From positions 13,392,001 through 13,456,000 of the forward strand of contig OZ024763.1 of the NCBI GenBank assembly GCA_964016885.1: DNA of 64,000 nt, given 5' to 3'. This document shows, piece after piece, positions 61,450 through 63,502 of this stretch; position 1 is the stretch's first letter, and each line of letters begins with the position of its first letter. This stretch comes from Eledone cirrhosa. Lineage: Eukaryota. Position numbers and translations under genes: made by a program. The notes beneath the pieces are model-generated. The model saw only the letters and a program-made list of their open reading frames with translations, ran no database searches and had not been told where the DNA came from.

Positions 61450-63502
61450 GATAGATATATAGATATATATATATACACACATACAGGTAAATATGTATGA
61501 GAATAACTTTATTGATAATAGAGGAAGGAAAAGCAGCTTTATTGAAAGTGGTGCTCTATAACAAAGCATGGAATTGGGGGACCAAAACCCTGGTTTTTAA
61601 GTTTATTAGTGGAGCAAAATGGAAAAGAAATTTTTTAAAAATACAACTTTATTTATTCATTTAATAAATAAAGACGAGGAAAAGATTAAGTTTTAAAAAA
61701 AAAATACATATATTAATTAATTAATGCCAGTGCAGTTTAATTGAGATGAAGAGAAAATAACAATACCAGCTTAATAGTTGAAAAAAATTAATTAGGAAAT
61801 GGTTGAGACATCCCGGATGGAGAGAGAGAGAGAGAGAGAGAGCTGTAGTTGAAGGGTTTTAGTCGATCATATTACAGCTCAGATATTACGGACATGGTCT
61901 GAGTGTCTCGGGGAAAGAATCACTGGACAGATTTTACAAGCAAAACCAACCGGCAGGAGACCCAGAGATAGACTCCGAGTAAGATGGTTGGATAACATCC
62001 ATGAGCTTGGCTGGTCACGCTTGGGGATCCATTCGGATCAATTGGAGACCGTAGCCTCTGACATGACCCGCTAGAAGGAGTACTTGAGGACTCTGCCCCC
62101 AAAACCCTCTCAAGAATAAGTGGGCAAAGAATAAACCACCCACTCTAATACATATTTTTCTTTTGTATTTGAAAGGCTGGTATTTATTTTATCGATGCCT
62201 TTTTGTCAAACTGCTAAGTTGTGGACAAAGAAACACACACGCATTCTTTACTGGTTTCAATCAAACTGTGGCCATGCTAGGGCATTACCTTAAAGTGATT
62301 TAGTGGATTATAATAAACCCCAATATTTATATTTTTCAAAGTCTTGTACTGATTTTATCAACTTTTTGGTGAAACTGCTAAGTTAAGGGATGTCAACAAA
62401 CAGTAAACACAAACACATACAGAAGAGGCTTCCACACAGTTTCTGTCTACCAAATTTCGTTCACAGGACACTAGTCAACCTGAGGCTATAGCAGAAGATT
62501 CTTGCTGAAGATAGCAAGCAGTGGGACTGAACCCGAAGACTGGTTGCAAAGTAAACCTCCATAATCGATATTCCATTTACATGCTTTGCTACCCACCTCC
62601 ATTGATCACATTCACACCCAGTGAACCATAAACATGTCATGTCCAAGCATTAATCAGACCATGCCATGCCAGACAGTATGTCAGCCACCACATCACTAGA
62701 GTGTGTAAAAGCTAAACTCACACACACACACACATTTGGAGAGTTGGTTGCAGGTGTTGACCGCTGAAATCATGTATTGGTCCAGTCAAGTCAGATGGTC
62801 TGAAGCCAATATGTGGCCCTCGCATACATAATGTACACTGTGGGAGCCATCACTAGCAGTCAAGACTTGCATTAGACATCAGTGCAGTGATTGCAGTGAA
62901 TGGTCATCCTCTGGTCACGCTGTAATGGACTCACTGATCTGAGCCAGCTCGACCAATCTCGGCAAACGCCGACAAGTATACAAATATAAGTATGACCAGT
63001 TGAATGAGAAGTACTGACCAAGTCTAATATACTGTAATGACCACACACAGGTCTTAGGCGGAATCTGTGATAACTTGACCAGGAATGGAAAAGGTCTTCA
63101 ACTCATGATGGATATGTAGAGGCACTGTCCTAATACACGAGTATCTTAGAGCATTTTAAACCTGGTTGAGCCCAGGCTTCTCGAGGATCTTGACCAGATC
63201 AGAGATAAAATAACAATAGATTATACAGCAGTAAATCCTCATAGAAATGTTAACCAGGATCTGGGATGTCTTGACCACAGAGTAAATTATTTCTGACCCC
63301 ATACCACCACCACCAGCAGAAAAGAACTGTTGTTGGTGATGGTGATGATAGGAACGTAGGAAAGTTTAAGTAACTAAGATAATAAACTGCAACGACATTA
63401 ACAAGAGCACAGACGATGGTGCCAATAAGTTCAGAAATGAAGGTAAGAGCGTTCCTACTACTGCCTAGCCAGGCTAGTTGTGGACTCTTCCATGTAGCGT
63501 AC

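Follow-up and report, generated by a model that had tools for sequence, protein, structure and literature searches.

The window analysed here, a stretch of 64,000 nucleotides from Eledone cirrhosa (contig OZ024763.1, positions 13,392,001 to 13,456,000), carries on its minus strand ten exons of the WDR33 gene, located by tblastn with a relative; four further coding exons lie upstream of it in the G000 assembly, which contains one WDR33 locus. The exon at 63503..63654 is the fifth coding exon of the gene. By alignment to WDR33 chains in PDB (E 8e-24) it corresponds to human residues 159-208 and is thus an orthologous WD40 exon. It is followed by an intron of 16,745 nt (46758..63502), the longest of those measured, as the initial annotation had stated, and by the next full-length WDR33 exon (46660..46757), splicing to which completes the codon AG|C for Ser. 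The position of this intron is homologous to that of human intron 6. Just before the ATG exon stands an acceptor-like CCAG, which makes an additional non-coding exon at the 5´ end likely; the intron in question would then be number 6 here, as in human. The closest database proteins group in a cluster with WDR33 of Sepia pharaonis.

Human WDR33 is known to produce a short isoform, WDR33v2 or V2 (rat NET14; Liu and Manley 2024, PMC11019558, PMC11445923). According to the excerpts of PMC11019558 on which we draw, it is formed when alternative polyadenylation leaves intron 6 in the transcript, has a tail of 118 aa behind two WD repeats, and resides in the ER; the tail is required for association with STING. 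The breakpoint follows from a construct described there as "V2-dTM, aa 1-208". Human residue 208 closes the motif KEAIREA and aligns with the end of our exon, so that the boundary 63503/63502 equals human 208/209; the named mammalian short isoforms also diverge after residue 208. The human junction given in the initial annotation is thereby confirmed. The Eledone locus thus departs from the full-length form (V1) after the same residue, at the intron 6 donor.

If the intron is not spliced, the reading frame stays open. It runs from 63654 to 63250 and encodes 134 aa, of which 50 belong to the WDR33 exon and 84, beginning with the split codon AG|G, form a read-through tail (63250..63504) ended by TAA at 63252-63250. 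Together with the 249 residues that precede the tail, the predicted isoform has 333 aa, compared with 326 aa in the named mammalian short forms. As had been proposed, the 84 codons lie in non-repetitive sequence: the tail is single-copy in the G000 assembly, by which its origin as a repeat or transposon fragment is ruled out, and a dispersed repeat occurs only beyond the stop, at 63186-63100. The 21-residue hydrophobic segment at 63429-63367 and the run of 45 uncharged residues described in the initial annotation were both found.

How easily does such a frame arise by chance? The initial annotation gave less than 1%, which proved too low. Open runs of at least 85 codons begin at 3.4% of non-repeat intronic starts (917/27,189; the starts overlap); if every intronic start is counted the share is 9.4%, and among base shuffles it is 1.2% (2,467/200,000). 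When hydropathy of at least 2.0 is required in addition, the share falls to 0.14% for the sense strand and 0.42% for the antisense strand. Read-through at the other 12 donors of the gene extends over 1-58 residues. The longest of these, at 25052-24880 on the minus strand, is mostly Ile, derives from a trinucleotide microsatellite and has a hydropathy of 4.05; it is a chance look-alike, and this genome does produce hydrophobic frames by chance. Microsatellites and minisatellites abound in positions 1-60000 of the window (166 tandem-repeat rows), and long open frames outside the WDR33 exons in this part nearly all derive from repeats. The computed range of 1.2-3.4% per start would permit a purely accidental frame, the RNA signal described below being unspliced precursor only, especially as no sequencing run is recorded as RNA. 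We nevertheless consider this very improbable, in view of the homologous human junction, of conservation among cephalopod-like sequences, of relatives in which a spliced N-terminus is joined to the tail, and of frame-keeping indels in other lineages.

The donor itself, AG|GTACGC (63497..63502), is a non-consensus phase-2 site. It is indeed the only one of nine donors in the window without GTRAG, as was originally noted; counting four upstream donors of the assembly the figure becomes 2/13, the remaining 11 being GTRAG. The second exception is the donor after the first coding exon (locus L014, G000:C24 near 13467307), which reads GTATTC. A phase-2 GTRAG yields Arg and then TAA or TGA at once, and the remaining three phase-2 donors of the gene indeed all give an immediate stop (3/3). 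The deviating donor and the open frame are therefore one fact, and the donor cannot count as independent evidence in the way the initial annotation used it. Two vertebrate-type loci (L089, L090) have GTTTAT in place of GTACGC. No stable RNA fold was found at the donor, 199 of 200 shuffles being more stable than the actual sequence (z +2.36), and a search of Rfam returned one chance match (E 0.38) inside a repeat.

Five database proteins of cephalopod-like type (P0109, P0121, P0333, P0324, P0005) pass from the homologous exon into a matching tail. Its first 41 residues (63382..63504) are conserved, with 35, 28, 27 and 27 of 41 identical in the four proteins counted (P0109, P0121, P0324, P0005), and a contig of another organism (organism B, see below) can be aligned to the window as far as 63381. 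To put this in proportion, the tail is identical at 27/41 positions to P0324, from the Sepia pharaonis WDR33 cluster, and the proline-rich exon of WDR33 itself reaches 50%. Alignment scores against four cephalopod-like tails (134-186) were reached by none of 500 shuffles, and on this sequence comparison the accidental frame appears largely refuted. Further, P0005 (307 aa) and P0324 (309 aa) each continue from an N-terminal part of about 240 residues into the tail. Their contigs measure 1,587 nt and at most 1,565 nt, respectively, and the equivalent exons cover 12 kb here; with both parts on contigs this short, these two are most likely spliced transcripts retaining the start of the intron. The tail has no similarity to any of 28 non-cephalopod tails (the best comparison was matched by 31/500 shuffles), and a search of the ESM Atlas found generic WD40 clusters only.

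Conservation is limited to residues 1-41. The following stretch (YLSYL..., residues 42-73, 63286..63381) has no match in the relatives and is lineage-specific, and the uncharged run together with WWWW, counted by the initial annotation among the features of the isoform, falls mostly within it. Another frame of the window gives FIILVT, to be compared with FIILIA of the relatives, which, judging from proteins only, suggests that the frame shifted where the helix ends; relative to the other proteins the stretch is likely displaced in frame and expanded. The last residues match P0109 again (GQDIPDPG vs GEDIPDSG), with equal stop position.

A membrane helix is predicted within the conserved part. 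The best hydrophobic window covers tail residues 22-40 (63385..63441), with a Kyte-Doolittle mean over 19 residues of 2.22, above the named mammalian V2 tails (1.75-2.07); this value is attained by 4% of open shuffles. AlphaFold2 places a helix across residues 16-47 with core pLDDT of about 73, in a model of low confidence overall (mean pLDDT 54.7). The Hessa-scale sum is marginal, +1.2, those of mammalian tails being +0.6 and +1.7, and a Glu occupies residue 25 within the candidate helix. The tail is thus predicted to carry one membrane helix of moderate strength. Such strength, together with the dissimilarity of residues 42-73 and the displaced FIILVT, would also fit an isoform that is still made, with a tail that has decayed past residue 41 in this lineage and no longer holds the protein stably in the membrane. 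We regard this as rather unlikely: the hydrophobic core at 22-40 precedes the shift, its hydropathy exceeds that of the mammalian tails, and the C-terminal residues return to those of P0109 with the stop in the same place.

Of the 24 sequencing runs listed for this stretch, 4 contain at least half of its words. Four of the 24 (X21, X22, X15, X10) were compared with 61490-63720. X22 is taken as RNA-like from its coverage pattern; the contigs carry no strand, end or level, and the depths given here are not expression levels. In the DNA run X21 the depth is flat at 10.9 over upstream intron, exon and tail. In X22, which bears the same organism code and comes from another sample, it is 0 in the upstream intron and 16 in the exon. 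A 719-nt contig of X22 (62814-63532, 0 differences) begins 30 nt inside the exon and enters the intron at depth 6.4; arithmetic on the coverage bins indicates a second branch of about 12 that leaves at the donor. In run X15 (organism B) one exon contig stops at 63503 (depth 61) and another, of 1,057 nt, enters the intron (10.6). Run X10 (organism A) has a spliced contig only. Coverage across 63503/63502, the check suggested at the outset, thus reveals a fork into the intron in two of three RNA-like runs (X22 and X15, not X10). Unspliced precursor of a slowly spliced intron could produce the same fork.

Further contigs of X22 (62541-62781 and 62002-62557) and depth continuing to the 61640 bin suggest where the 3´ UTR of such a short isoform would lie (61640..63249); this stretch contains fragments of dispersed repeats. 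One of them (63186-63100) has 6 other matches listed in the assembly, another (61865-62540) shows very high depth in every run. The first canonical hexamer past the stop is AATAAA at 61652..61657, a candidate poly(A) signal with UGUA 51 nt upstream (61708) and a U-rich tract downstream. The coverage of X22 fades in the 61640 bin near this hexamer, and the DNA run also falls to 0 at 61490-61564, so this is only a weak hint that a short transcript ends here.

A metagenome scan for animal loci by exon patterns alone kept the best 80 of 114. At the homologous position 15 of these continue into the next exon and 65 have AG|GT. GTRA occurs at 0 of these 65 donors (GTGGG 27, GTACA 9, GTGCG 6, GTGTG 5, others 18), and a weak 5´ splice site is accordingly conserved. 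After seven loci shorter than 260 nt were left out, the remaining 58 fell into 13 lineage clusters. The median in-frame read-through is at least 50 residues in 9/13 clusters, against 1 and 0 in the other two frames (Wilcoxon p 0.038); two of the nine tails are not hydrophobic (L018 1.01, L022 0.79). The other four clusters read through 1, 2, 10 or 14 aa and retain the non-consensus donor. Within the largest cluster, of 30 loci, 12/17 indels are multiples of three (p 0.002 versus one third expected). Tail dN/dS, obtained from lineages other than cephalopods, is 0.57 (18 loci picked from the 30-locus cluster), 0.59 and 0.37. The exon has at most 0.03, and shifted frames give 0.65-1.56. In a fourth group there are zero tail differences, and a short-frame group gives 0.25 from 18 differences, read beyond its stop. 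Selection appears to act on an open and hydrophobic frame more than on exact residues. Synonymous distance is lower in the tail (0.38) than in the exon (0.58), which indicates that constraint at RNA level is present too.

Several other observations were made in this material. In L071, L075 and L091 the non-consensus donor is followed by a stop at once or after 2 residues, that is, the V2 tail is lost and the weak donor kept. Eight loci (L044, L045, L046, L066, L067, L070, L072, L076) have an in-frame read-through of 10 aa only; their first 150 nt are near-identical and the other frames are open for 56 and 40 codons. Database protein tails came from length-limited searches and were kept out of the statistics: 19 of 197 could not be parsed, 85 of the 178 parsed are non-canonical, and seven of these database proteins end at Arg. 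Tails from several unrelated groups (P0028, P0042, P0090, P0132, P0140, P0147, P0152, P0155, P0324) end in Val/Ile-Thr and a stop (GEAVT, NVDIT, ISEVT, MGIT), possibly reflecting a common nucleotide motif. Up to about residue 76 the bird-type V2 tails (P0206, L089) agree with the mammalian sequence; beyond it they apparently switch to another frame, and a similar frame shift separates P0065 from P0146. In one WDR33 isoform of a bird (P0316) it is the following intron that is read through, again into a hydrophobic tail (2.12).

We propose that the weak donor would delay splicing of the long intron (46758..63502), that intronic poly(A) cleavage would win in part of the transcripts, and that these short transcripts would encode a 333-aa, two-repeat protein of WDR33v2 type with one predicted membrane helix. 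Such a membrane isoform was the reading offered at first, and junction, tail conservation in cephalopod-like sequences and RNA-like runs support it; that a share of transcripts takes this course we hold to be quite probable. As in the human case described in the excerpted sources, the chain is cut after the second WD repeat, the hydrophobic tail is encoded by the intron after residue 208, and candidate poly(A) sites lie within it. There are also differences. The tail has 84 residues and the human one 118, without detectable similarity, and the intron is 16.7 kb long compared with 1,668 nt, a length that makes full retention with poly(A) sites in exon 7 or intron 7 unlikely here. Partnering of the isoform with STING, extrapolated from human cells, is a tentative suggestion. 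A profile search of the assembly gave no match to STING (PF15009) and none to the check family Mab-21 (PF03281), neither of which matched any control genome, so that this blank is uninformative, and listings of the literature on STING in cephalopods yielded nothing decisive.

Another role of the same arrangement deserves attention. Weak donor and intronic poly(A) site might cap full-length WDR33 by feedback, the tail being tolerated or co-opted later; as the chief explanation of the locus this is doubtful, and it can coexist with a membrane isoform. Analogy comes from other genes of 3´ processing factors, namely CstF-77 (intron 3) and PCF11 (intron 1), which have an early intronic poly(A) site (PMC3708835, PMC6458999), as the candidate here would be. 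CstF-77 intron 3 combines a weak donor with a large intron (PMC3708835), just as WDR33 does with its longest one, and a figure of PMC6458999, on premature termination that depends on PCF11 in human cells and in zebrafish, includes WDR33 as an example. The four clusters with short read-through that keep the donor, the greater conservation of synonymous sites in the tail than in the exon, and the lack of a tail sequence common across phyla point in this direction. On the other hand, attenuation needs no long frame, yet 9/13 clusters keep one, with indels that preserve it and dN/dS below 1. Unlike the short RNAs of CstF-77 and PCF11, for which those papers report no apparent or detected protein, the WDR33 read-through frame shows coding constraint. 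Moreover, according to the excerpted PMC11445923, knockdown of CFIm25, FIP1 or CstF64 in HeLa cells causes no significant change of V1 mRNA. As four of the 13 clusters keep the weak donor but no long tail, this attenuating role may be the more ancient one.

Returning to the membrane isoform, V2 in invertebrates is already published: the excerpts of PMC11019558 (Figure S7) give homologs in D. melanogaster as well as in N. vectensis; for C. elegans they give none. The two homologs are likewise predicted to have two WD repeats and a C-terminal membrane segment, and rest on manual inspection and prediction; the table of nine organisms in those excerpts includes no mollusc. Among papers on WDR33v2 or non-canonical WDR33 isoforms, judged by title or start of abstract, we found no mollusc work. 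The cephalopod locus is a further member, not a new kind. More speculatively, a weak donor that avoids the stop at one WDR33 intron might be an animal-wide switch older than any tail sequence. Every lineage would keep the donor and most would rebuild an open hydrophobic frame independently, and the switch would both cap CPSF and supply a two-blade WD module tethered to the membrane, with a partner that could be other than STING. We put this forward as a conjecture that may well fail.

So far invertebrate WDR33v2 rests on two hand-picked predictions. With the Eledone locus a mollusc joins them, backed by conserved sequence and transcript-like contigs, and the loci of the side sample bear signs that the frame is under coding selection elsewhere. 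A candidate cause, at sequence level, is also offered for the inefficient, slow splicing reported for human intron 6 in PMC11445923, the Discussion of which names none: a donor changed to consensus would close the frame. Lineages in which the donor is kept and the tail lost provide a natural test between function as a membrane protein and attenuation.
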